From Candidatus Omnitrophota bacterium (GTDB taxonomy: Bacteria > Omnitrophota > Gorgyraeia > Pluralincolimonadales > Pluralincolimonadaceae): a stretch of DNA of 64,000 nt. How positions within the stretch are numbered: the stretch's first letter is position 1; every line of letters starts with the position of its first letter. The position numbers and the translations under genes were made by a program. The notes below the pieces were generated by a model that was not told where the DNA came from, ran no database searches, and saw nothing but the letters and a program-made list of their open reading frames with translations. This document shows, piece after piece, positions 21,284-35,008 of the stretch. Location of the stretch: NCBI GenBank assembly GCA_003141835.1, contig PLNR01000009.1:136307-200306 (forward strand). The letters are read 5' to 3'.

Positions 21284-21697
21284 CTAAAAGAGCGATTCCT
21301 GCCCTATCGCCTTATTCGCCAATTTATCCGCCCCTTTATTCTCGGAGCGGTCTATATGCCTAATCTCGTATTTATCAAACCCGCCCAACAGATGCATGAT
21401 CTGCCTGTAAAGCATCTTGAGGGTAGCGTCCTTTATCTTATATTCCTTTTTCAACTGCTTCGCGAGAAGCTCCGAGTCCGTATTAATTATAACCTCGCCG
21501 GCCCTCAAAATCAAGGCCTCCTGGAGGCCGTATATCAGCGCCATGTATTCCGCGACGTTATTCGTCGTCTCGCCGATATATTCCGAGACATTCCCTACAG
21601 TCTCGCCTTTATCGTTAATGATGACCGCGCCCACGCCGGACGGCCCGGGGTTGCCGTGGCAAGCGCCGTCGGTAAATATGGTCAGCCGCTTACGCAT
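21284..21697 (-). CDS. rnhA: ribonuclease HI
   Basis: 137 aa with FTDGACHGNPGPSGVGAV and the RNase H catalytic residues. Confidence 0.9.
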   Translation of the reverse strand: MRKRLTIFTDGACHGNPGPSGVGAVIINDKGETVGNVSEYIGETTNNVAEYMALIYGLQEALILRAGEVIINTDSELLAKQLKKEYKIKDATLKMLYRQIMHLLGGFDKYEIRHIDRSENKGADKLANKAIGQESLF

Positions 21698-22421
21698 CTT
21701 CCTCGTTCTCGATATAAAGGATCCGCGCGCAGCTATCGCAGGTGACTATCTTGTCCTTCATCTTGATCTCGTTTATGACCTGCGGCGGTAGGTTCATAAA
21801 ACAGCCTTGGCACGACTTCCCCTTCACCGGGGAGAGCGCGACACCATCCTTGCCGGCGAGGACCTTCTCGTAATGGGTAAGTATTTTTTTGTCGACCAGC
21901 ACGGTTATTTCATTGCGCTGCGCCTCGAGGGTAGAGATCTCTCCGTCGAGCAACGCCATCTCCGCCTCTATCTTCTTTTTGTCCTCGTTCAAGTGTTTCT
22001 CGGCGTCGGCGAAAAGTTCTTTTTCCTTCGCCATCTCCTTGTTCAGGTCCTCAGCTTCTTGCATCAACACCAGTATCTCATCCTCGATGCGCGAGTTGTC
22101 GGCCTTCTGCCCTTCGATCTCATGCTGCATCGTCTGGTATTCTTTGTTGGTCTTTAACTGGTAGAGCTGGGCCTGGAATTTCTTTATGCTGTCTTCTTTA
22201 GTCGAGAGATCGAGCTCGCGCTGCTTGCGTTTGACCTGGCTGGCCTTGATCTTCTCCTCAAGCGCCTTTACCGCGGCCTGCTCCTCGTTGCGGCGGACCT
22301 CCAAGTCCTGTATCAATTTCGGCTTGGACTGCCTCTCCCGGCGCAGGCCGTAGAGCCTGCTGTCGAGGGCCTGCAATTTGATGAGATGAACGAGCTCTTC
22401 TTCGACGTTTACCTTCTGCAT
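21690..22421 (-). CDS. zinc-ribbon and coiled-coil protein (COG1579 family)
   Basis: 243 aa with a long coiled coil and C-terminal CQGC...CDSC. COG1579 proteins are commonly paired with rnhA. Confidence 0.7.
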   Translation of the reverse strand: MQKVNVEEELVHLIKLQALDSRLYGLRRERQSKPKLIQDLEVRRNEEQAAVKALEEKIKASQVKRKQRELDLSTKEDSIKKFQAQLYQLKTNKEYQTMQHEIEGQKADNSRIEDEILVLMQEAEDLNKEMAKEKELFADAEKHLNEDKKKIEAEMALLDGEISTLEAQRNEITVLVDKKILTHYEKVLAGKDGVALSPVKGKSCQGCFMNLPPQVINEIKMKDKIVTCDSCARILYIENEEDA

Positions 22422-22802: not shown

Positions 22803-24335
22803 TTAGTGGATCACCGGTCCGGGCACATCATGCCTCGGCCGCTTGAGCAGGAAGACGAGCGGGACGACGCATATCATCATAATTGAAGCCACGTGGAAAG
22901 CATCGTTAAAAGAAAACAGGTTCGCCTGCCTCATCAGCTGCTGGAATATGAGGCCGTTTGCCGCGTGTTCGGAGACAGGCCCGGCCTTCGCCCCGAGGAC
23001 GCTCATCGCCTTATTGAGGCCCAGCTGGTAATGCGTGTCGTAAGGATTGAGCTGCTCGGATAAGCGCGCCTGGTGGAACTGCGCCCTCCTGGCCAGGATA
23101 GTGGTCATTATCGCGACGCCGAAACTGCCGGCGATGTTCCTTATCAGGCTGAATATACTGGTGGCGTTGGCCATCTCTTCCTTCTTGATGGTCGCGAAGG
23201 CCATAGTCATCAACGGGACCATTATCATACCCATCCCTACCCCCATGACTATGCGCGACCAGGCGATGATATCATAATCTACGGACAGGTTGAACCGCGT
23301 CATCATGAACATGGAATAAGCCATTATGACGATCCCGCAGATGAGGATCGCCTTCGGATTGATCCGGGTGAGCGACAGCCCTACCAGCGGCATAATTAAT
23401 ACCGTGGCCACACCTCCGGGCGCGAGGACCATTCCGGCCAGAAAAGCGGTATACCCCATAAGCTCCTGCACAAATATCGGCAATATGACGATGCTCCCGA
23501 ATAGCGCAAAGAATGCGATGAGCTGTATCACGTTAGCGCTCGCGAAAGCGACGTTCTCGAGCGCCCTTAGGTTTAATATGGGATCTCGTGTCCTTAGTTC
23601 GACTATTATGAACGCGATGAGGGCGACGGCTGATATTATGGCAAGCCTTATGATGAAGGCCGAGGAGAACCAATCCTCACGCTGTCCTTTATCAAGTACG
23701 ACCTGGAGGCATCCTATACCTACGACTATGAGGCCAAGCCCCCAGTAATCTATCTTTTCCCTTATATTAACTCTCCTGAGGTACGGCGGGTCGACGATGA
23801 AGAACATCGTCATTATGATGGAGATCAGCCCTATCGGGATGTTTATGTAAAATATCCACGGCCATGACCAGTTATCGGTTATCCATCCTCCTAGGAGAGG
23901 CCCTATGATCGGGCCGAAGAGAACGCCTATGCCGTAGACCGCCATCGCTATGCCGTGTTTAGCCGGCGGGAACGTTTCCAGAAGTATCGCCTGCGAAAGC
24001 GGCTGGAGCCCGCCGCCTCCTATCCCCTGGAGTATCCTGTAAAAAATAAGCGCGGAAAGGCTGTGCGCGCTCCCGCACAAAAAAGAGCTGAAGGTAAATA
24101 AACCGACCGATAACATCAGGTAGCGCTTCCTGCCGACGAGCCGGCTCAACCAGCCGGTCATCGGGATTATTATGGCGTTCGCGACCAGGTAGGCGGTGAT
24201 CGTCCACGTCGCCTCATCGATCCCTGCCGAAAGGCTTCCCCTGATATGGTTGAGCGAGACGTTCACTACGGAAGTATCAATGACCTCGAGAAGTGTCGGG
24301 AGGATGACCGTTAAAGCGATGATCCATCTGCTCAT
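22803..24335 (-). CDS. MFS drug efflux transporter, DHA2 (EmrB/QacA-like, 14 TMS)
   Basis: A polytopic MFS protein. The start is set at the MSRW ATG, which overlaps the HlyD stop (ATGA); the longest ORF extends to 24395. Confidence 0.8.
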   Translation of the reverse strand: MSRWIIALTVILPTLLEVIDTSVVNVSLNHIRGSLSAGIDEATWTITAYLVANAIIIPMTGWLSRLVGRKRYLMLSVGLFTFSSFLCGSAHSLSALIFYRILQGIGGGGLQPLSQAILLETFPPAKHGIAMAVYGIGVLFGPIIGPLLGGWITDNWSWPWIFYINIPIGLISIIMTMFFIVDPPYLRRVNIREKIDYWGLGLIVVGIGCLQVVLDKGQREDWFSSAFIIRLAIISAVALIAFIIVELRTRDPILNLRALENVAFASANVIQLIAFFALFGSIVILPIFVQELMGYTAFLAGMVLAPGGVATVLIMPLVGLSLTRINPKAILICGIVIMAYSMFMMTRFNLSVDYDIIAWSRIVMGVGMGMIMVPLMTMAFATIKKEEMANATSIFSLIRNIAGSFGVAIMTTILARRAQFHQARLSEQLNPYDTHYQLGLNKAMSVLGAKAGPVSEHAANGLIFQQLMRQANLFSFNDAFHVASIMMICVVPLVFLLKRPRHDVPGPVIH

Positions 24336-25321
24336 TTGGTGAGGATGGTCGGTATGCAGGACATTCCGACGCGCAATTGGCGGTTCGCGCCCCAATCTTT
24401 GTCGAAGGTTATCTTCACGGGAACCCTTTGGACCACCTTGACATAATTGCCCAATGCGTTTTCAGCCGGGAAGAGCGAGAACGCCGCGCCTGTCCCTGCC
24501 ATGATGCTGTCGACCTTGCCCTTGAATACTTTACCGGGATAGGTATCTACCAATATCGTGACATCTTGCCCGGCTTTGACTCTTTCAAGCTGCGTCTCTT
24601 TATAGTTCGCGATGAGCCAGATGTCGCCGAGGTCCACGACCGCCATGAGCGGCTGGCCCGCCTGCACCTGGTTACCGGCCTCGACGGACCTTCTTGTCAC
24701 ATACCCGTCCGAACTCGAATATAATTTGGTATAACTCAGGTTAAGCTGGTTTATATCCAAAGTCGCCTGCTTCTGTTTGATGAGCGATCCCTCGAGGTCC
24801 CTGACCGCCTTCGCCTTCGAAAGCTGTTCCTCGGCCGCCACTAACTGCGCCTTGGCGAGCTCGAGCGCGGTCGTGATCTTCTCATGGCGTTCTTTTGTTA
24901 TGACTTCCTTCTGGAAAAGTTTCTCGCCGCGGTCCATGTCCAACTGGGCCTGGTTAAGGGTCACCTGCTGGATGGCGAGGTTCGCCGCCGCGGTCCTTAT
25001 CCCGGCCTCGGCGTCTGCGAGCCGCGACTTCTCGGCCTCGACCGCGGAATTGGCTTCCTTCACCTTGAGTTCGTAATCCGCAGGGTCGAGCTCGATGAGC
25101 AGGTCGCCTTTTTTGACGTCCTGGTTATCGTCGACATGCAGCTTCAGGACAGTCCCCGGGACTTTGAACGCGACCTGGTGGACGCGGCCGTCGATATAAG
25201 CGTCATCGGTCATTACGCGCCCAAAGCTGGTCACCATATGGATGACGCCAAGTATTATCCCTATCGCCGCGACGGCCAGTATCACGAAGATCAATTTGTG
25301 TTTCCTGTTATTGTCCGCCAT
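24332..25321 (-). CDS. HlyD/EmrA-family membrane fusion protein
   Basis: 329 aa with an N-terminal transmembrane segment, a coiled coil and a biotinyl/lipoyl-like beta domain. Confidence 0.85.
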   Translation of the reverse strand: MADNNRKHKLIFVILAVAAIGIILGVIHMVTSFGRVMTDDAYIDGRVHQVAFKVPGTVLKLHVDDNQDVKKGDLLIELDPADYELKVKEANSAVEAEKSRLADAEAGIRTAAANLAIQQVTLNQAQLDMDRGEKLFQKEVITKERHEKITTALELAKAQLVAAEEQLSKAKAVRDLEGSLIKQKQATLDINQLNLSYTKLYSSSDGYVTRRSVEAGNQVQAGQPLMAVVDLGDIWLIANYKETQLERVKAGQDVTILVDTYPGKVFKGKVDSIMAGTGAAFSLFPAENALGNYVKVVQRVPVKITFDKDWGANRQLRVGMSCIPTILTK

Positions 25322-26648
25322 TCCGGGTATTCTCCATTTTTTCGTATATCATCGCCATGTCTATGCCCATCGAATACATCAGCCTCGCGTAACTCCTCTT
25401 GAGTTCGTAATCGGCCCTGTAATAGTTCGTCTGGGCGTTCTTCTGCATCGTTATCGAATCGAGCACTTCGGTGGAAGTGGCGCTGCCGCCGGTGTACTTT
25501 TCGCGGTAGAGCCGGACGTTCTCCTCGGCCTGCGCGACCGCCGCTTTGGTGACTTTCACTTTTTCGGAGGCGTCATTAAGGCCGTTGAAGCTGTCCTTGA
25601 CTTCGAGCTTGACGTCATCGACCAGTTTCTTCCTCTCCTCCTCAAGCTGCGCGCGCCTGACTCGCTCCCTGTCGGCCTCGGCCTTGGCAAGCCCGCCGTC
25701 GAAGGCATTGACCTTGACGCCTAGGGTGAATGCCATCGCGTCGTCGTGGACCATATACCTGTTCTGCGTCATGGAATATCCGCCGTCGGCGAAGAGCTCG
25801 GGGTAATTCTTCGCACGCTTGCTCTTCTCGAAGAGCGATGTCGCCCTTATCTGGTCGTCGACCATCTTTATCTCCGGCCTCTGCTCTTCCGCGGTCCTGA
25901 AAGAATAACCCAGCGCCGGTATCTCCGGAGGCGCCATATCGAATTCGCTGACCGCAATGGGTTCCTCCAGCGGTATTACGAGGATATTGCACAATTTTGC
26001 CGCGACATTGTCCCTGAGGTTGCGCATGGTGATGAGCCTCTGCTGCGCGTCTGAGAGCCTTACTTCCGCGGATAGGAGGTCGTTCTTTACCGCGGCGCCC
26101 TCGTCATACATCGTCCGGACGTCCTTCAGATAGGAAGATATGCCGTCGATCTCGCTCTGGTTCACCGCGATCATCTTCTCCGCGTCAAGGAGGTCGAAAT
26201 ATGTGATGATGAACTCGAGCACGGCGATGTTCTTTATCCTGCCTATATCCGTCACACTGGAATCCAGCAGGGCCTTTGAGGCCTTATAATTATAATAATT
26301 CTTCCCGAAATCGAAGATGGTCTGGTATACGTCAGCGCCGAGCGAGAAGAAATTCCTTTGGGACGTGTTCACCGCCATCGCCCCGAATTTCGCGGTCGGC
26401 TGGTGGCTCAGGAACGTCTCGCTAAACGACGCGTTGACCTGGGGCAAGAGCGGCGAACGGGCCATCGAGACCTCCTGCGCCGAGATCTCCTTGTTCGATT
26501 CCGAGATCTTCACGAGGTGGCTCTCCTCAAGGACCTTCTTTATCCCGTCGCGGATAGTTATCAGCCGCGGCGCGCCTGTCACATCGGCAACGGCTATGGG
26601 AAGGGCCAATAAAAATATAACATATATTGCGAAAATTCTCTTCATCAT
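25308..26648 (-). CDS. TolC-family outer membrane efflux protein
   Basis: 446 aa with a signal peptide and duplicated TolC coiled-coil repeats. Confidence 0.8.
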   Translation of the reverse strand: MMKRIFAIYVIFLLALPIAVADVTGAPRLITIRDGIKKVLEESHLVKISESNKEISAQEVSMARSPLLPQVNASFSETFLSHQPTAKFGAMAVNTSQRNFFSLGADVYQTIFDFGKNYYNYKASKALLDSSVTDIGRIKNIAVLEFIITYFDLLDAEKMIAVNQSEIDGISSYLKDVRTMYDEGAAVKNDLLSAEVRLSDAQQRLITMRNLRDNVAAKLCNILVIPLEEPIAVSEFDMAPPEIPALGYSFRTAEEQRPEIKMVDDQIRATSLFEKSKRAKNYPELFADGGYSMTQNRYMVHDDAMAFTLGVKVNAFDGGLAKAEADRERVRRAQLEEERKKLVDDVKLEVKDSFNGLNDASEKVKVTKAAVAQAEENVRLYREKYTGGSATSTEVLDSITMQKNAQTNYYRADYELKRSYARLMYSMGIDMAMIYEKMENTRNGGQ

Positions 26649-26681: not shown

Positions 26682-28106
26682 TCAAAAAGGAATGACCCTT
26701 ATCGCCCTCACCGGGCGGACCGGGCATTTGTTCTGGCATGTCCCGCAGCCGACGCAGAGGTCCCCGTCCACAAGCGGCCTTAATACTTCCCTGCCGTCAA
26801 CGATATCTTTTTTTAATTTTATCGCCTTATCCGCAACCGGGCAATGCTCCTCGCAGACAACGCATTGTCCGTTCCCGGCCCAGGCTATGCATATCGAACG
26901 GTCGACCGCAGCGAGGCCGAGCCGCGTGTCGTGTTTCACCTCAGGCGAGACGTTGCGTATGGCGCCGGTCGGACAGGTCCTGCCGCAAAGAGTGCAGTTA
27001 TATTCGCAATATCCTATCTCGGGGATGAGCTGCGGCGTCCATACTCCCTCTATTCCCGATTGGAAAGAGACCGGCTGGAGCCCGTTCGTCGGGCAGACCT
27101 TCATGCAGTTGCCGCACCTGACGCACCGGTCTATGAATTCGCTCTCTTCCAGCGCCGCCGGCGGTCTTATGACGCTCCTTCGCCTGTGGGAACGCAGCGG
27201 GTCGAACCTAAAACCCAAAGAAAAAACGGCCAATGACGACATTAACAGGAAATCCCGCCTTGTTATTCCCTCTTTATGCCCGGGGACGGCTGCTGCGCGG
27301 GCCTTATTTCCGGCCGGCCATTCGAACCTGGTGATATTTACGGGGCAATCGTAGACGCAATCCATGCAAAGGACGCACTCGCCCTTCGAATAGCTGGAAT
27401 CGTCCCTTATGGCGCCCATCCGGCAGGCGCTTTTGCATTTTTTGCAGTTTTTGCATTCTTTGGCCGTCCGCCCTAAGAGCGCGGCCTTCGCAGTCAGGGC
27501 ATATATGGCCCCCAACGGGCAGAGCGACCTGCACCAAAGGCGCGGGATAAAAAGCGCCAGCCCGCATACTACGGCGAAATATATAAAAACGGGAAGAGCG
27601 TGCGGAAAGAAATGCGGGTTCACGCCCAGTGTGGCGATAGGGATTAGGTTAAACGAGACGAACCTCGCGAATATGGCCAGCGGGTCTAATACCCATGCCA
27701 GTTGAAGGCCTACCGCAGCGGATACCGTTATTACGGCAAGGATGAAGAATTTTGGTTTTCGGACTTTCGCATTGACCGCATCCTTCTCTTCCTTTTTCAT
27801 ATAGCCTTTTCTGCGCAGCCAACCAGATAGGTCTATCGCCGATCCGAGCGGGCATACCCATCCGCAGAAGAACCTTCCGAATATGAGGGTGAGCGCGAGC
27901 ATCGTGGTGGCAATTATCATTCCCGGAAGCAAAACTTTCTCGCTTAATGAAGTAAATATCATGATGAGGGGGTCTATCTTGAAGAGCACTTGCGGCGAGA
28001 TGCCACCATTAAGCGGATATGTCGTGGACCAAAGTACGTAGATAAAAAGGAAGAAAAAAACTGTCTGAGAGATCCTGCGTAAAACTGCCCATTTCTTTTT
28101 TGCCAT
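26682..28106 (-). CDS. membrane-bound polyferredoxin: NapH/MauN-like N-terminus plus additional 4Fe-4S domains
   Basis: 474 aa. The transmembrane region carries FCGWVCPLG and WCRSLCPLG, and at least four more CxxCxxCxxxCP ferredoxin motifs follow. Confidence 0.8.
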   Translation of the reverse strand: MAKKKWAVLRRISQTVFFFLFIYVLWSTTYPLNGGISPQVLFKIDPLIMIFTSLSEKVLLPGMIIATTMLALTLIFGRFFCGWVCPLGSAIDLSGWLRRKGYMKKEEKDAVNAKVRKPKFFILAVITVSAAVGLQLAWVLDPLAIFARFVSFNLIPIATLGVNPHFFPHALPVFIYFAVVCGLALFIPRLWCRSLCPLGAIYALTAKAALLGRTAKECKNCKKCKSACRMGAIRDDSSYSKGECVLCMDCVYDCPVNITRFEWPAGNKARAAAVPGHKEGITRRDFLLMSSLAVFSLGFRFDPLRSHRRRSVIRPPAALEESEFIDRCVRCGNCMKVCPTNGLQPVSFQSGIEGVWTPQLIPEIGYCEYNCTLCGRTCPTGAIRNVSPEVKHDTRLGLAAVDRSICIAWAGNGQCVVCEEHCPVADKAIKLKKDIVDGREVLRPLVDGDLCVGCGTCQNKCPVRPVRAIRVIPF

Positions 28107-28134
28107 ATGCTGCTTGACCCTGTTCCTGTTTAGG

Positions 28135-29100
28135 TTATAATCTTATGGCCTGTCTGGCGTTCAGAATCCTGCATCCTCCGCCGCAATTATCATATTCCGC
28201 ACAAACACGGCAATCCTGACATAAATCTTTATTCCGGAAGGAGCTGGTTTTTTTAAGTTCGGTTAATTCGGAAAAACCGGTTTCGAAAAGATTCCCCAGG
28301 ATCTCAGGGTTCTGCTCGCAAGTCCTTAGATTCCCTAAAGGGTCTATCACCCACTTGTCCTTTCCGCATACACATGTCCCAAAATTAAGGCTCGGATACC
28401 TGCTATGGTCTATGCGGCAGGACTCAACCGGGATTGTGACGTTTACCGGAAAATTTAATTCTTTAGCCTTCTTATCTGCGATATGCAGGACATCCTCGAG
28501 ATCTTCTTTAGTTATCTGGCAATCAGACATATTTTCCAGGCCGCGGCCTCCAGGCACAAACCGGTTTAAAGAGATGGAATCAGCCGAGAAAGCAAAGGAA
28601 AGGTCGATTATTTCCCCGATCTCCGACTTATTGTATTTAGTTATCACCGCGGATATATTAAGCCTCGCTTTATGTTTTTTAACCGCCAGGATCGCGTTTT
28701 TTACCTTATCGATGCGGTCATTTTGGCTCAAATAAGCATACGAATCTTTCCTTGCACTTACGAGGGATAATTCAAAATAACCTACGCCGTTATTTACCAG
28801 TGCCCTCACCACGCCTTCGTCCAGCAAGATTCCGTTCGTGGCAATCCCTAATTTGATTTTCTTTTGATTCAGGAAGGACGCGATCTCGATGAGATAGGGG
28901 TATAATAGCGGCTCACCGCCGGCTAAAGTGACCCCGGCCGGCTTGATCTCTGAAAGGATTTTTTCGAATAATTTCTTGCTTTCGGAAAGAGGCAACTCTC
29001 CCTGCGGATATCCTTTATCTTCTTTCCAAACATTATAACAATACAGGCAATTATTATTACAGCGCGGGGTTATTTCATAAATGAGAAATAAATTACTCAT
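28135..29100 (-). CDS. radical SAM enzyme with a C-terminal SPASM/twitch auxiliary cluster domain
   Basis: CNNNCLYC (CxxxCxxC), GGEPLL, and a C-terminal CVCGKDKWVIDPLGNLRTC...CQDCRVC...CGGGC. The gene lies in a local GC dip of about 38-40%. Confidence 0.85.
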   Translation of the reverse strand: MSNLFLIYEITPRCNNNCLYCYNVWKEDKGYPQGELPLSESKKLFEKILSEIKPAGVTLAGGEPLLYPYLIEIASFLNQKKIKLGIATNGILLDEGVVRALVNNGVGYFELSLVSARKDSYAYLSQNDRIDKVKNAILAVKKHKARLNISAVITKYNKSEIGEIIDLSFAFSADSISLNRFVPGGRGLENMSDCQITKEDLEDVLHIADKKAKELNFPVNVTIPVESCRIDHSRYPSLNFGTCVCGKDKWVIDPLGNLRTCEQNPEILGNLFETGFSELTELKKTSSFRNKDLCQDCRVCAEYDNCGGGCRILNARQAIRL

Positions 29101-30058
29101 TCTCCAAATCTGCGATCAGTTCATTAAGGCGGGGAAGGATTGTTTTAAATTCTCCAAGGGCTTTCTTGGTTTCGGCATATTTTCGGTCTATATCTTTATA
29201 ATAAACTCCCTGTTCGTCTTTAAACTTTTCTTCTCTTTTCTCTGACTCGTATCCGGAATAATCTTTTTCAACGGCTGACACGTATTCGTTTATCATATCC
29301 TGAGTATTTTCTGAGGAAGTAAGCGGCAATCTAAAAAAATGATTGTATTTTATTTTAATGATATCCAAAGCGTACACGCCTTCGGCATCTCTCTGGACAT
29401 TCGCTAATGCCCGTTGAAACTCATTATCAATAATCCTTCCCTTGCTTTTTAATTCTAACAATTTGTCTATTTTAATCTCCAGATCGTGGAGCATAATATC
29501 TTGTGCTATATCACCTGGGATCGCCATGCGCGTCATCATATTAGGCCCCACCCAAAAACTTTCAATCCTATAATCGGAAACCTTGCGTAAAAAACTGACT
29601 TCTTGAGAAGATATCATGTCTCCTTCAAGTTTTTCCAAATTAGAAACCTTAACCTGCAACTCCTTCTTTAAGCTTTCGTATTGCTCTTGAGAAATTGAAT
29701 TCCTGTATATTCTCCTCTGGCGATCATCCTTGACTTCATGCCCCGTTCGTTTTGGTTCTATCTGGTCCAGCTTTTTCCAGAAAGCTTTGAAATCTTTCCA
29801 TTCAAGAGTGCAGCAAATAACGGCCGTCGAGCTGGGCGGCTGCGAGATCTTCTTCTGTTGGCTGGAAGCCGAAAGTTCACCTTGACTGGCATAACTCGAG
29901 CCGCCAAATGAAAGAAAACCCAGCATAAGCAGTAACGAACTCAAAAAAAGACTACGGCGTTCGATCTTATTTAATTTATGCGGACGGATTCCCAGGGTAA
30001 ACAGAATATAGGCAGCTGCAACAGCAAATAAAACCACGACTATTTGAAATAATTTCAC
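29093..30058 (-). CDS. hypothetical membrane-anchored protein (2 N-terminal TM helices, CC motif, long charged coiled-coil region)
   Basis: A 321-aa ORF in the low-GC block. Its start overlaps the rpoD stop and its stop overlaps the radical SAM start. No recognisable family. Confidence 0.6.
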
Positions 30059-31698
30059 GTGGTATTCTCCTCACCTAACCCTAGCCCCATCTCTAAGAAT
30101 GTCTTTAGTTTCTTGGAACGTATGGGATGGCGCAATTTGCGCAACGCCTTCGCCTCTATCTGCCTTACCCTTTCGCGGGTGACGTTGAATATCGAACCGA
30201 CCTCTTCGAGGGTGCGCGGGCAGCCGTCGCCTATGCCGAAACGGAGTTTCAGGACCTTCTTCTCCCTTTCGGTCAGCGTCGTCAGCACGTCCTCGAGTTG
30301 TTCCTTCAGCATCGAATAAGCGGTCGCGTTAGCCGGCGATATCGCCCTCTTGTCCTCTATGAAATCCCCGAAATGCGTGTCGCCTTCGTCGCCGACAGGC
30401 GTCTGCAGCGATATCGGCTCCTGGGCGATCTTCAATATGCCGCGGACCTTCTCCGTCGCCATCCTCATCGAATGCGCGATCTCCTCGGGCAGCGGCTCGC
30501 GCCCTGTTTCTTGCACGAGGTTACGTGAAACACGGATCAACTTATTTATCGTCTCGGTCATATGGACCGGGATGCGGATAGTGCGGGCCTGGTCCGCTAT
30601 CGCGCGGGTTATCGCCTGCCTTATCCACCACGTAGCGTATGTTGAAAATTTATATCCCCTCTCGTATTCGAACTTGTCGACCGCGCGCATCAGCCCGATG
30701 TTGCCTTCCTGGATGAGGTCGAGGAACGAAAGGCCCCTGTTCGTGTATTTCTTCGCGATAGATACGACGAGCCTCAAATTGGCCTCGACGAGTTTCTTCT
30801 GCGCGCTCTCGAACTGCCTCTCGCGCCTTCTTATATATGCGATGCGGTCCTTCATCTTAAGCAGGGGCTCGTCGAATTCCCTTATTACCTGGCGCTTCCT
30901 CTCCTTGAGCACGGCTGTATGGCCGCGCGGGCCCTTGCCGGCCAGCCTGATGACGTCCCTGTCTATCTTCTCTGCCTCATAGAGGAGGAATTTCATCCTG
31001 GCGGCGAGGTCTTCCACCACCGAAGTGGAGAACTTGAAATCCGTCAGAAGCGGCACGAGGTTCGTGGTCTTCTTGGCGCCGCGGAGCCTCTTCATCAGCC
31101 GCTGGATCTTCTTTATCACCTTCTCCAGCTTTTCGGTCGGGTCTATATCGACGACCTCGTCAATATTGACCTGCCTGGCGAGGATATCGTTTACGAGCCG
31201 CAAGACCTCTTTCCTGCAGAAAGAGCATTCGAAGACCGATTCCCTGAACCTAAACTCGGCTTCCTTGATCTTCTTGGCGAGCTCGAGTTCCTGCTCGCGC
31301 GTCAAGAGCGAGATCTGCCCCATCTGCTTGAGGTACATGCGAACAGGGTCTTCCATCTGGGCCATGCGAGGGATCTCTTCCGCCTCGGGTTCCGGCTTAT
31401 GGGCCTTCTCCTCCTCTTCCTCTAGGCCTTCCTCCTTGAGCTCCTTCTCCTCATCGGCATCGATTATCTCTATCTTTTCTTTGTCGAGGACTGCAAAGAT
31501 CTCGTCGATATCCTCGGACGAAGTGACCTCTTCCGGCAGGAGGTTGTTTACCTCCTCGAAGGTGAGATGCCCTTTCTCCTTGCCGAGCGCTATAAGTTTT
31601 TCGAGGCCTTTGATCCTCTTCCTTATATCGATCTTCTTCGGAGCCTTCTTAGTTGTCTTCTTCACAGCCTTCATCTCCTTGCGAAATCCTTTTGGCAT
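30055..31698 (-). CDS. rpoD: RNA polymerase sigma factor RpoD (sigma-70)
   Basis: 547 aa with regions 1.2 to 4.2 and [12 protein letters not shown]. Confidence 0.93.
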
Positions 31699-33443
31699 TT
31701 TACCAGGCCGCTGTATTCGGCGACCAGTTGGGTGACACGCTTCTCGTCGCCCATCATCTGGGCGGCCTTTATAAGGTTCTGCAGCTCAGAGAGCCTTGAC
31801 TTCGAGTTATTGCACCTGATCCATCTTACGCAATCCGAGAGGTTCTTGGGCTTGTCCTTTATATCATCAGTGAGGCTCGTAGCCTCAGCTATAAGCGCAG
31901 TCAGGTCGCTCTCCGCGAGCTTGTTTATCAATTGGGCCGGCTTGAAAGATTTGCCGTCCCCGTATGAACTGAATATCTCCTCCGCTATCTTGCGCGTCCC
32001 CACGTCAACAAAATCCTCGGACTTCAAAGTCTCCTTGACCTGGGCGATCGTCTCCGGGTCATCGAGCATGAGCCCTATCACGATCTTCTCGGCCATCGCC
32101 GCCTGGGACTTCCCGGCCGACGAAGAGAGCTCCTCGGAGGGCTCGTATTCGCGGTCCGGTTTTACTTTCTTCAACTCCGAGAGCAAGGCCCCTTCGCTCA
32201 CCTGCAGCCTCTCGCCTAATCTTTTTACATACTCGGATTTCAAGACCGCGTCGGTCACCTTCGCTATCGTCGGAAGCATTTCCGCGCACATCTTCGCCTT
32301 GTCCGACGACTTCTTCGCGTCGTATCTCGAGGCGAGGACTCCCAGTTTAAAATCAAAAAGGTCCGCGGCTCCGGAGATCAGTGAATCGAATTCCCCGGCA
32401 CCCTTGCCCCTCACGAACGAATCCGGGTCGAAGCCTTTCGGCAGTGTGGCGACCTTGACCTGCATCCCCTCCTGCAGGAATATGTCGAGGCCGCGCAGTG
32501 AGGCCGCTTCCCCGGCCGAATCGCCGTCGTAGAGCATGACGACGTTCTTGGTATACCTCTTTATCAGCCTCGCCTGGAGTTCGGTCAGGCTCGTGCCGAG
32601 CGAAGCCGCTATATTCATTATCCCGTTCTGGTAAGGGATAAGGAAATCGAGGTAACCCTCGACTATTATGCAAAAATCCTTTTCTTTAATCGCCTGGAGA
32701 GAAAAATTGAACCCGTAGAGATGCCTGCTCTTTATATATACTTCCGTCTCCGGGGAATTTATGTATTTGGGGAGCGACTTGTCCAGCACCCTCGCCCCGA
32801 ACGCCACGACCCTGTTCTTGATATCGAAGATCGGGAACATTATCTTGTTCCTGAACCTGTCGTAATGGCCGCCGCCCTCGCGCGGCATGACCAGCCCGGC
32901 GCGCTCGAGGAGCTCGACGCCTACCCCCTTGCCCTTCGCGAAATTTATGAGGCCGCTCCAGTCGTCAGGCGCGAATCCCAGCTTGGCTTTCGCGATAGTG
33001 TCGTCGTTTACGCCGCGTTCCTTAAGGTAAGAACCGGCATGCCTTCCTGCATCTGTCCCGACCAGCATTGACGAATAAAAAGAGGCCGCCAGTTCGTTCA
33101 GCTTATATATCTGGAGGGCGTATCCGCTCGTCTCGAACTGCGACTGGGTAAAACGCGGTAATTCCACGCCTGCTTTTTCCGCGAGGGTCCTGACCGCCTC
33201 CGGGAAATCCATATTCTCCATCTTCATCACGAAACCGAAGACATTACCCCCGGCGCCGCACCCGAAACAATGGAATATCTGTTTCGACGGGCTGACCATG
33301 AAAGACGGGGTCTTCTCTTTATGGAAAGGGCAGGGCGCCTTGTAATTCCTGCCGGCGCGACGCAGCGGGACATAGCTGCCGATGATCTCGACTATATCGG
33401 CTTTGTTCTGTATCTCTTCTAAGACCTGTTCCGAGAACGCCAT
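31671..33443 (-). CDS. dnaG: DNA primase
   Basis: 590 aa with the zinc-binding motif [11 protein letters not shown]...CFGCG and a TOPRIM domain. Confidence 0.92.
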
Positions 33444-34438: not shown

Positions 34439-35008
34439 TTACTTACCCTTCGGGAGCGCTTTTGCGAGTTCCGGGGATGTCCTTGCTAAGACCTGATATA
34501 CGTTGGGCGCTATCTTCGCTACGTAGGGGCCTGTCAGGGAACGTTCCTCTACAGATTTTACCAGGTAATCGACCTGGATGATGCTAAATAGCATGAATAA
34601 AAGGCTCATCAGGACCGCGCCGCGGAACAGGCCCACCATGAACCCGCCCCATTTATCTATCTTGTCGGCAAAGGCCAGCTTTACTATCTTGGTCAAACCG
34701 AGGGCGACTAATTTCATACTTAGCATAGACAGTAAAATTAGTATTAAAAAAGTCGCGCCGTCGACATATTCCTGTGGCAGGGATACGGTAGAATTAATGC
34801 GGCTTCCTAGAGCGGAATAGAATTTGATGGAAAAAAAGAGGCCCAGCAGGACGCCTATTATCCTGAAGATCTCTTCTGAAAGTCCGTTACGCGCTCCAAT
34901 ATAAGCTGTTCTAATTAAAAGGATTACGATCAGGACATCGACCCAATTGATACGCTGGAATACTTCTGGCAAGAGATTTCTCCTGATATTTGTAACCAAG
35001 TATATCAC
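34439..35008 (-). CDS. cvpA: CvpA-family membrane protein (colicin V production protein-like)
   Basis: The INWVD N-terminal motif is present with multiple transmembrane helices. The true start may be internal, possibly a TTG. Confidence 0.7.
   Translation of the reverse strand: MIYLVTNIRRNLLPEVFQRINWVDVLIVILLIRTAYIGARNGLSEEIFRIIGVLLGLFFSIKFYSALGSRINSTVSLPQEYVDGATFLILILLSMLSMKLVALGLTKIVKLAFADKIDKWGGFMVGLFRGAVLMSLLFMLFSIIQVDYLVKSVEERSLTGPYVAKIAPNVYQVLARTSPELAKALPKGK

Follow-up and report, generated by a model that had tools for sequence, protein, structure and literature searches.

In a 64,000-nt stretch of a Candidatus Omnitrophota genome (hereafter the window), two overlapping genes lie between rpoD and the gene of a membrane polyferredoxin (Table 1). 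The first encodes a 321-amino-acid (aa) protein with an N-terminal membrane hairpin, here called hyp321 or the partner, and the second a radical S-adenosylmethionine (SAM)/SPASM enzyme. The two genes recur together in several bacterial phyla, and the comparisons described below suggest that the first protein may be the substrate of the second. The rpoD stop and the GTG start of hyp321 overlap in the sequence GTGA (30055-30058), and a GAGGAG Shine-Dalgarno sequence is placed within rpoD, 8 nt 5′ of that start. The hyp321 stop and the ATG of the radical SAM gene share an 8-nt overlap, ATGAGTAA (29093-29100), and 28 nt separate the radical SAM stop from the polyferredoxin start. No terminator-like site was found between rpoD and polyferredoxin. 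A check of open reading frames (ORFs) and junctions thus bore out what a preliminary description of this DNA had reported of the two ORFs, their strand, the overlaps and the 28-nt gap. That description had also seen no short precursor peptide ORF, and our re-scan of 28050-30120 yielded none that is plausible or free-standing: every ORF of at least 20 aa in this interval falls within the two genes, in other frames.

The 1.9-kb pair is the lowest-GC segment in the 64 kb (41.7% versus a mean of 53.5% with a standard deviation of 2.2%, that is, about 5 standard deviations under). The GC content of hyp321 is 40.0% and that of the radical SAM gene 43.7%, with values at third codon positions (GC3) of 41% and 49%, as compared to 54.6% (GC3 75%) in rpoD, 54.0% in the polyferredoxin gene, 53-56% (GC3 64-76%) in six larger flanking genes and 53.4% in the window overall; the 5′ ~200 nt of the polyferredoxin gene are also of somewhat reduced GC. 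The drop to 38-40% originally given for both genes is therefore real and holds for hyp321, but the figure is too low for the radical SAM gene. The uniform profile, which had been named as the outcome that would remove the argument for an island, was not what the recount returned.

Table 1. Features of the locus and of the two proteins (positions in the window; res, residues of the encoded protein; TM, transmembrane helix)
Feature	Position	Strand	Remarks and basis
CT398-like gene	21690-22421		
TolC-, HlyD- and MFS (major facilitator superfamily)-type genes	22803-26648	minus	
Promoter-like site just 5′ of TolC	26685-26656	minus	11/12 matches
Polyferredoxin, 474 aa	26682-28106	minus	NapH-like/NapG-like fusion
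Radical SAM/SPASM gene, 321 aa, ATG start	28135-29100	minus	ORF list and Pfam
SPASM region, res 228-311	28168-28419	minus	alignment A4 and Pfam
CNNNCLYC (CX3CX2C; C14, C18, C21), binds the SAM-cleaving [4Fe-4S] cluster	29038-29061	minus	motif
hyp321 (321-aa partner gene), GTG start	29093-30058	minus	ORF list
Helix-turn-helix, res 190-222, SHOCT-like, LE.KID.L..LK.KG.I...EF	29393-29491	minus	alignment A3
Inter-helix loop NMMTRMAIP, res 173-181, proposed target site	29516-29542	minus	conservation
Conserved Trp helix, res 84-100, EW..FK.FW..LD	29759-29809	minus	alignment A3
N-terminal membrane hairpin, whole	29900-30052	minus	hydropathy
TM2, res 36-53, signal-like helix, then a possible cleavage site between SYA and SQ	29900-29953	minus	
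Basic loop, res 24-35	29954-29989	minus	charge; probably inside by the positive-inside reading
TM1, res 3-23	29990-30052	minus	hydropathy
rpoD	30055-31698	minus	
dnaG	31671-33443	minus	
cvpA-like gene	34439-35008		

A metagenome scan supplied 80 further loci; neighbours were searched in 100 loci, and collapsing left 73 distinct enzyme groups. We refer to an enzyme group as close if it scores at least 330 with the enzyme hidden Markov model (HMM), and as informative if at least 900 nt of upstream DNA is available. A partner-family ORF is found directly upstream in 24 of 24 close, informative groups, and on shorter contigs the 3′ end of the partner gene is visible in nearly all. When the search started from the partner, an enzyme gene was found immediately downstream in every locus, usually with a 4-8 nt overlap, in Omnitrophota, Ratteibacteria, Patescibacteria, Acidobacteriota, Marinifilum, Spirochaetaceae and a PVC bacterium; a remote partner member with 19% identity likewise has the enzyme gene directly downstream. 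When it started from the enzyme (in Patescibacteria, Omnitrophota and WOR-1), an unannotated gene was seen to overlap the enzyme start, encoding a protein of 300-333 aa that aligns with hyp321 over its full length at 30-35% identity. A pattern-based genome scan for the partner gave 6 loci. By phylum, Omnitrophota, Ratteibacteria, Patescibacteria, WOR-1, Acidobacteriota, Bacteroidota and Spirochaetes are among the hosts. Beyond the two genes none is conserved, the commonest further neighbour being present in 7 of the 73 groups, and the flanks vary by locus.

The window ORFs score 332.7 bits (partner) and 510.9 bits (enzyme) with the cassette HMMs, and the pair has all that defines the cassette: an upstream overlapping partner, the W..FK.FW helix and the T-R-M-x-P loop. 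These comparisons support the view that the two genes are a functional unit, a self-contained and widespread cassette; the preliminary description had treated the pair as a unit, and the co-occurrence in all 24 close, informative groups agrees with this. In line with its remark that no system of this kind is known, neither gene could be assigned to a described family. A literature search found neither the pairing nor the loop motifs described, though its coverage was incomplete, with subscription journals mostly outside it, and a prior description is possible. In profile searches of Pfam and NCBIfam, neither gene product was placed in a family narrower than a superfamily.

The enzyme has only three Pfam domains: Radical_SAM (PF04055, 80.8 bits, cut-off 29.5, residues 8-167), SPASM (PF13186, 25.0 bits, cut-off 21.5, residues 243-300) and Fer4_12. 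Neither a PqqD-like domain nor a recognition element (RRE) of the kind that binds peptides which are synthesized by the ribosome and then modified after translation (RiPPs) was detected in it with Pfam, and, because Radical_SAM begins at residue 8 and spans the protein to residue 167, a peptide-recognition domain would not fit in at the N-terminus. In a 31-sequence enzyme alignment (A4), C14, C18 and C21 are invariant, and so are eight SPASM-region cysteines within the last 95 residues (C228, C243, C245, C261, C297, C300, C306 and C310), with the spacings C245-X10-G-X4-C261 (CX10GX4C) and C297-X2-C300-X5-C306-X3-C310 (CX2CX5CX3C). By analogy with the anaerobic sulfatase-maturating enzyme (anSME), this set would be enough for two auxiliary Fe-S clusters. 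The last isolated Cys of the canonical SPASM domain is missing, the protein stopping 11 residues past C310. Enzymes of the close clade end 11 residues past the CX3C Cys and lack this final Cys, while those of a more distant clade (see below) are ~355 aa long and retain a downstream Cys. Since the final Cys is missing in the close clade, one auxiliary cluster there may be left with a ligand site that is open or filled by something other than Cys.

In the source record the enzyme gene is given as 286 aa, with a start 35 codons late (cf. L098:2064-2924), so that CX3CX2C is lost; the 321-aa reading from the ATG at 29100 is common to all homologues, of which there are 622 at E≤1e-10. Comparison with the NCBIfam SPASM, anSME and PqqE models had been proposed as a check, and no cut-off was reached, the matches being at superfamily level only. 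The best of the tetrapyrrole models was NirJ2 (109.3 bits, cut-off 500), followed by AhbD (105.1/500), NirJ1 (87.3/650), AhbC (74.4/650) and NirJ (74.4/515). Likewise below their cut-offs were anSME TIGR03942 (56.7/349.45), the RiPP maturases PqqE (70/381), MftC (74/265) and YhhB (55/445), MoaA (67/284), viperin NF038283 (68.1/180) and TIGR04133 (69.3/425). The pVip models of PADLOC match at ~76 bits, in the radical SAM core only (residues 4-206). Among PDB sequences the best match is PqqE (E = 1e-6). An AlphaFold2 model of the enzyme, with a predicted local distance difference test (pLDDT) value of 88, has SkfB (E = 7e-16) and SuiB (E = 2e-13) as its nearest solved folds (template modelling score ~0.7, 16-18% identity); viperin, DesII, MoaA, PqqE and anSME (score ~0.66 for anSME) come next, all at 14-21% identity.

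hyp321 has no family match in Pfam, NCBIfam or PADLOC. A word-based search found 10 close homologues, whereas a HMMER profile run against 1.84 billion cluster representatives retrieved 205 matches at E≤1e-3 and 135 at E≤1e-10; a further database search with a 72-sequence partner profile added almost no new members. Judged from its sequences, the family is real but fast-diverging. The ratio of nonsynonymous to synonymous divergence (dN/dS) of hyp321 relative to a sister genome is 0.29, indicating a real gene under purifying selection. The topology of the partner was read from hydropathy and charge, and the two transmembrane helices of the preliminary description are present. TM1 is missing from some relatives, others have the domain twice in tandem, and 24 of 72 have a lipobox (LSGC, LTGC or similar) at the end of the last hydrophobic helix. 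The charge distribution and the lipoboxes suggest that the domain after TM2 is extracytoplasmic. Past TM2, a low-complexity Ser/Gln-rich linker leads to an all-alpha domain of ~240 aa, and an exported all-alpha domain is a better description of this part than the long coiled coil first proposed. The CC motif that had also been pointed out is present (C82/C83) but not conserved, the sister genome reading LCS.

W87 and W94 of the Trp helix are the sole invariant columns in the 72-sequence partner alignment (A3). In the AlphaFold2 model of the partner, which was built from 10 sequences and has a mean pLDDT of 67.6, a helix is placed at residues 85-98 with pLDDT ~85. In the helix-turn-helix, E194, I197, D198 and L203 are nearly invariant, and the SHOCT model PF09851 gives weak matches in 4 of 72 members. 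The best conserved non-helical element is the loop at residues 173-181, with the family consensus S-M-M-T-R-M-M-P-P; M178 is found in at least 90% of sequences, position 177 is R or H, and the model has pLDDT <50 across the loop, which is flanked by two helices. No Cys is conserved in partners with this T-R-M motif (TRM-type) in the 72-sequence alignment. Two other elements were considered as targets and dropped: an anSME-like site at the near-invariant Cys161 (Ser in the window protein), a position that many relatives fill with F, T, L or I, and the invariant Trp helix as a common target element, which is often missing from the second type of partner described next.

Enzymes of the distant clade share 32-39% identity with the window enzyme and are mostly without a recognisable partner-family gene upstream. 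Instead, they are preceded by genes for lipoproteins of ~240 aa with a twin-arginine translocation (Tat) signal, polytopic membrane proteins of ~400 aa, proteins of 118-211 aa and a 252-aa seven-repeat protein; nearly all of these upstream proteins contain the motif T-C-Y-x-P. The pattern [T/S/M]-C-Y was counted 18 times over 9,096 residues of upstream ORFs and twice over 34,766 residues of the remaining long ORFs at these loci (odds ratio 34, p = 6e-11). Three transitional proteins (L063, L066 and L059) have the full partner architecture, that is, hairpin, lipobox, Trp helix and SHOCT-like element, with TCY where the family has TRM, and when the profiles of the partner and Tat-signal families were aligned with hhalign, TRMmPP fell on TCY.P (E = 5e-4). 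An upstream protein has either T-R-M-x-P or CY, never both. In a neighbour-joining tree of the enzymes, the TCY-paired ones form one clade and the TRM-paired ones the rest. The hairpin is wholly absent from TCY-type partners.

Several proteins of the distant clade deserve separate mention. The seven-repeat protein (L092:147-905, 252 aa, no signal peptide) carries seven x-C-Y-[M/L/F]-P repeats spaced ~25-30 residues apart, and its gene lies 320 nt upstream of that of a distant relative of the enzyme (L092:1229-2296); in sequence it looks like a multi-core precursor. A family with both Tat signal and lipobox (L057:121-882, L068:375-1067, L069:1055-1756 and L074:2354-3091) has no family assignment and is paired with distant-clade enzymes; the members from L057, L068 and L069 have two CY sites, one just past the lipobox and one in the TRM-equivalent loop, and that from L074 has the loop site only. 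An exception to pairing in this clade is L058 (1205-2374 and 2367-3392), where a tandem of two radical SAM/SPASM genes has no detected partner-type ORF ahead of it.

On balance we lean towards the view that hyp321 is the substrate of its paired enzyme, since loop motif and enzyme clade vary together. The loop motif is the only element common to all partner types and changes with the enzyme lineage, as one would expect of a recognition and target site such as C-x-P-x-R of sulfatases. We also count for this interpretation that the nearest solved folds, SkfB and SuiB, are peptide-modifying SPASM or twitch enzymes, and that the locus has no precursor ORF, no intergenic space and no RRE domain. The preliminary description had put forward the 321-aa protein as a candidate partner or substrate, a proposal strengthened by the strict pairing and by the co-variation of loop and clade. 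According to the scheme we propose, a horizontally mobile cassette would have inserted behind rpoD in an Omnitrophota genome. The product of its first gene would be exported, or else tethered to the cytoplasmic membrane on its outer side, and the second gene, translationally coupled to the first, would supply a dedicated radical SAM/SPASM maturase. The maturase would act on its partner in the cytoplasm, before export; maturation is placed there because some partners carry Tat signals. Cleavage of SAM at the C14/C18/C21 cluster would generate a 5′-deoxyadenosyl radical, which would take hydrogen from a residue of the M-M-T-R-M-x-x-P loop (residues 173-181), most likely of the Arg-Met pair, and the two SPASM auxiliary clusters would then deal with the electron whose transfer completes an oxidation or a cross-link. 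Possible chemistries at the Arg-Met or Cys-Tyr pair are cross-linking, dehydrogenation and epimerisation.

A number of observations weigh against this interpretation. Conservation of the loop could be structural or reflect ligand binding, the loop being Met-rich like Cu(I)-binding motifs, and the co-variation of loop and enzyme could reflect shared ancestry alone. TRM-type partners with a hairpin may insert co-translationally, leaving little time for a cytoplasmic enzyme. The hhalign match between the two motifs is weak (probability 31%), the enzyme tree, built from distances, is crude and carries no support values, and at ~10 distant-clade loci (L058, L070, L089, L095, L097 and others) neither motif is found upstream.

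A different role for hyp321, in which it would keep the enzyme at the membrane via the cytoplasmic TM1-TM2 loop, as an anchor, chaperone or regulator, while the enzyme acts on a non-protein substrate (a lipid, envelope precursor or tetrapyrrole), seems unlikely to us. It would explain why the hairpin and basic loop (G23, I24, R25 and K28) are well conserved in close relatives, but TM1 is absent in many members, the TCY-type partners have no hairpin, and what all partner types have in common, the loop motif, is in the exported part; moreover, one partner, the protein with seven CY repeats, is soluble and lacks a signal. The tetrapyrrole enzymes NirJ2 and AhbD do give the best NCBIfam scores, only ~105-109 bits, however, against cut-offs of 500. 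Lipid-modifying radical SAM enzymes such as GDGT-MAS are among the weak PDB matches, and a membrane polyferredoxin follows the pair in this lineage, both of which would suit such a role. Scarcely credible is the proposal that the enzyme belongs to a known housekeeping family (anSME, NirJ/AhbD, MoaA or prokaryotic viperin) and has an unrelated neighbour. Weak full-length matches to many SPASM families and the pVip score of ~76 bits point that way, but all NCBIfam scores are far under the cut-offs, the best PDB sequence match reaches only E = 1e-6, viperins have no SPASM domain while the enzyme has one, and the neighbour is present in 24 of 24 informative groups.

We also consider very improbable a larger pathway under rpoD control in which the enzyme and hyp321 would work together with the polyferredoxin as electron donor and the TolC/HlyD/MFS block as exporter. 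The arrangement in the window invites this idea: all genes are on the same strand, with no terminator-like site from rpoD to polyferredoxin and a gap of just 28 nt before the latter, and rpoD, the pair and polyferredoxin are kept together in the sister lineage. The locus closest to the window (L001, from a Candidatus Omnitrophota metagenome-assembled genome), with an RpoD 95% identical, is collinear from cvpA to the CT398-like gene; however, it lacks the whole TolC/HlyD/MFS block (~4 kb), and its CT398-like gene directly follows polyferredoxin. The efflux block is thus an insertion or deletion relative to L001, and in the window it is preceded by a promoter-like site of its own. In addition, the partner has its own Sec or lipoprotein-type export signal and needs no efflux pump. 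Among the 100 loci, only L001, L002 and L018, all of one sister lineage, and the window's own records have polyferredoxin beside the cassette. The wider system is not supported, because polyferredoxin is lineage-limited and the efflux block is absent from the sister locus, and the comparative context largely refutes it. Of the members that the preliminary description had added to the pair, polyferredoxin (beside it in 3 of 100 loci) and the exporter fall away, and the link to rpoD is an accident of where the cassette was inserted, as rpoD adjoins the cassette only in the window lineage and one relative, L027. Polyferredoxin could still be a lineage-specific electron partner.

The polyferredoxin scores 111 bits with NapG and 108 bits with NapH of NCBIfam, both under the cut-off; its NapH-like membrane half spans residues 2-263 and its NapG-like half residues 301-473, with a twin-arginine motif, GITRRDFLL, in the middle of the protein, so that the usual Tat signal of NapG is internal. 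In both Ratteibacteria and Omnitrophota the cassette lies a few kb upstream of the same group of CT398-like, RNase H and rsmH genes (L003:12373-13507 and L001:11684-12821; 21690-22421 in the window), with different immediate flanks; this proximity may be old synteny or coincidence. The cvpA-like gene of the window shows a second, milder GC dip (46%, GC3 55%) amid surroundings of 53-55%.

In the sister genome the two genes occupy the equivalent site and are likewise low in GC (39.6% and 45.1% versus 52%), and the pair was therefore acquired before the two genomes split. At ~7 of 10 other loci the GC content of the pair is 2-10 points under that of its surroundings. Between the window and the sister genome, synonymous divergence (dS) is 0.43-0.61 in the flanking rpoD, dnaG and polyferredoxin genes, 0.12 in the enzyme gene and 0.145 in codons 1-100 of the partner, and ~1.0 in partner codons 101-310, where amino-acid identity is 61%; dN/dS is ~0.2-0.3 throughout. 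The divergent stretch of the partner corresponds to 29150-29750 in the window and L001:8300-8930. The mosaic pattern points to recombination or allele replacement and to divergent alleles of the exported, surface-exposed domain; it does not look like simple positive selection. This mosaic divergence, together with a patchy distribution over phyla with enzymes at 45-60% identity, supports the view that the cassette is horizontally mobile. The foreign origin first proposed from base composition is in keeping with such a history, which the shared GC3 drop, the patchy distribution and the mosaic divergence make plausible. Phage origin is unlikely, because no relative above 26% identity was found in IMG/VR.

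Of the characterised systems, anSME is also a radical SAM/SPASM enzyme without an RRE, and it modifies full-length exported (Sec or Tat) sulfatases at a short motif while they are still in the cytoplasm. The partner of the cassette, however, is not a sulfatase: it has no Pfam sulfatase match, and the C/S-x-P/A-x-R motif was not seen on reading its sequence, the motif here being T-R-M-x-P, or T-C-Y-x-P in the sister clade. Furthermore, enzyme and putative substrate of the cassette are always an overlapping gene pair. In having a dedicated enzyme encoded beside the gene of a ribosomally made substrate, the cassette resembles the RiPP maturases (SkfB, SuiB/StrB, PqqE, MftC and the cyclophane-forming YhhB/XyeB), and the repeated core motifs of L092 in the distant clade are as in many RiPP precursors. 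Unlike RiPP systems, it includes no RRE or PqqD-like domain, has neither a protease gene nor an exporter gene and encodes no 20-60-aa leader/core peptide, and its putative substrate is a folded exported protein of ~320 aa.

QhpD is a radical SAM/SPASM enzyme whose substrate, QhpC, forms the small subunit of quinohemoprotein amine dehydrogenase; it introduces cross-links into QhpC in the cytoplasm, ahead of transport to the periplasm. It thus offers a precedent for a SPASM enzyme that modifies a periplasm-bound protein in the cytoplasm; QhpC, however, is small and Cys-rich and has other qhp genes nearby, whereas TRM-type partners have no conserved Cys and the cassette no third gene. TIGR04133 ('rSAM_w_lipo') is presumably paired with a lipoprotein family in Bacteroidota, and as an uncharacterised SPASM enzyme with an exported lipoprotein it represents an analogous idea, not the same family: the lipoprotein model of that system gave no match at E≤1 in 10 of 10 partner proteins, which have no consistent NCBIfam match. 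By the membership features compared, the cassette lies outside the anSME, QhpD and RiPP families; it would work like anSME and QhpD, with a RiPP-like gene adjacency.

For annotation, the enzyme start moves 35 codons further upstream, which restores the catalytic motif, and the efflux pump and polyferredoxin are not part of the cassette. Much unusual chemistry on peptides is the work of radical SAM/SPASM enzymes, and to our knowledge very few of them act on whole proteins. With just two genes and a target loop that can be predicted, the cassette is a clean system, and the other motif of the sister clade provides a built-in comparison. Its hosts include many candidate phyla without cultured members, in which few surface proteins can be interpreted. 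Together with the T-C-Y-x-P clade, the cassette may represent, as we tentatively suggest while regarding it as somewhat short of probable, a new class of radical-SAM-dependent modification of exported or surface proteins, widespread in small-genome uncultivated anaerobes (Patescibacteria, Omnitrophota, Ratteibacteria and WOR-1), with a chemistry at Arg-Met or Cys-Tyr that would be unlike the characterised SPASM reactions.

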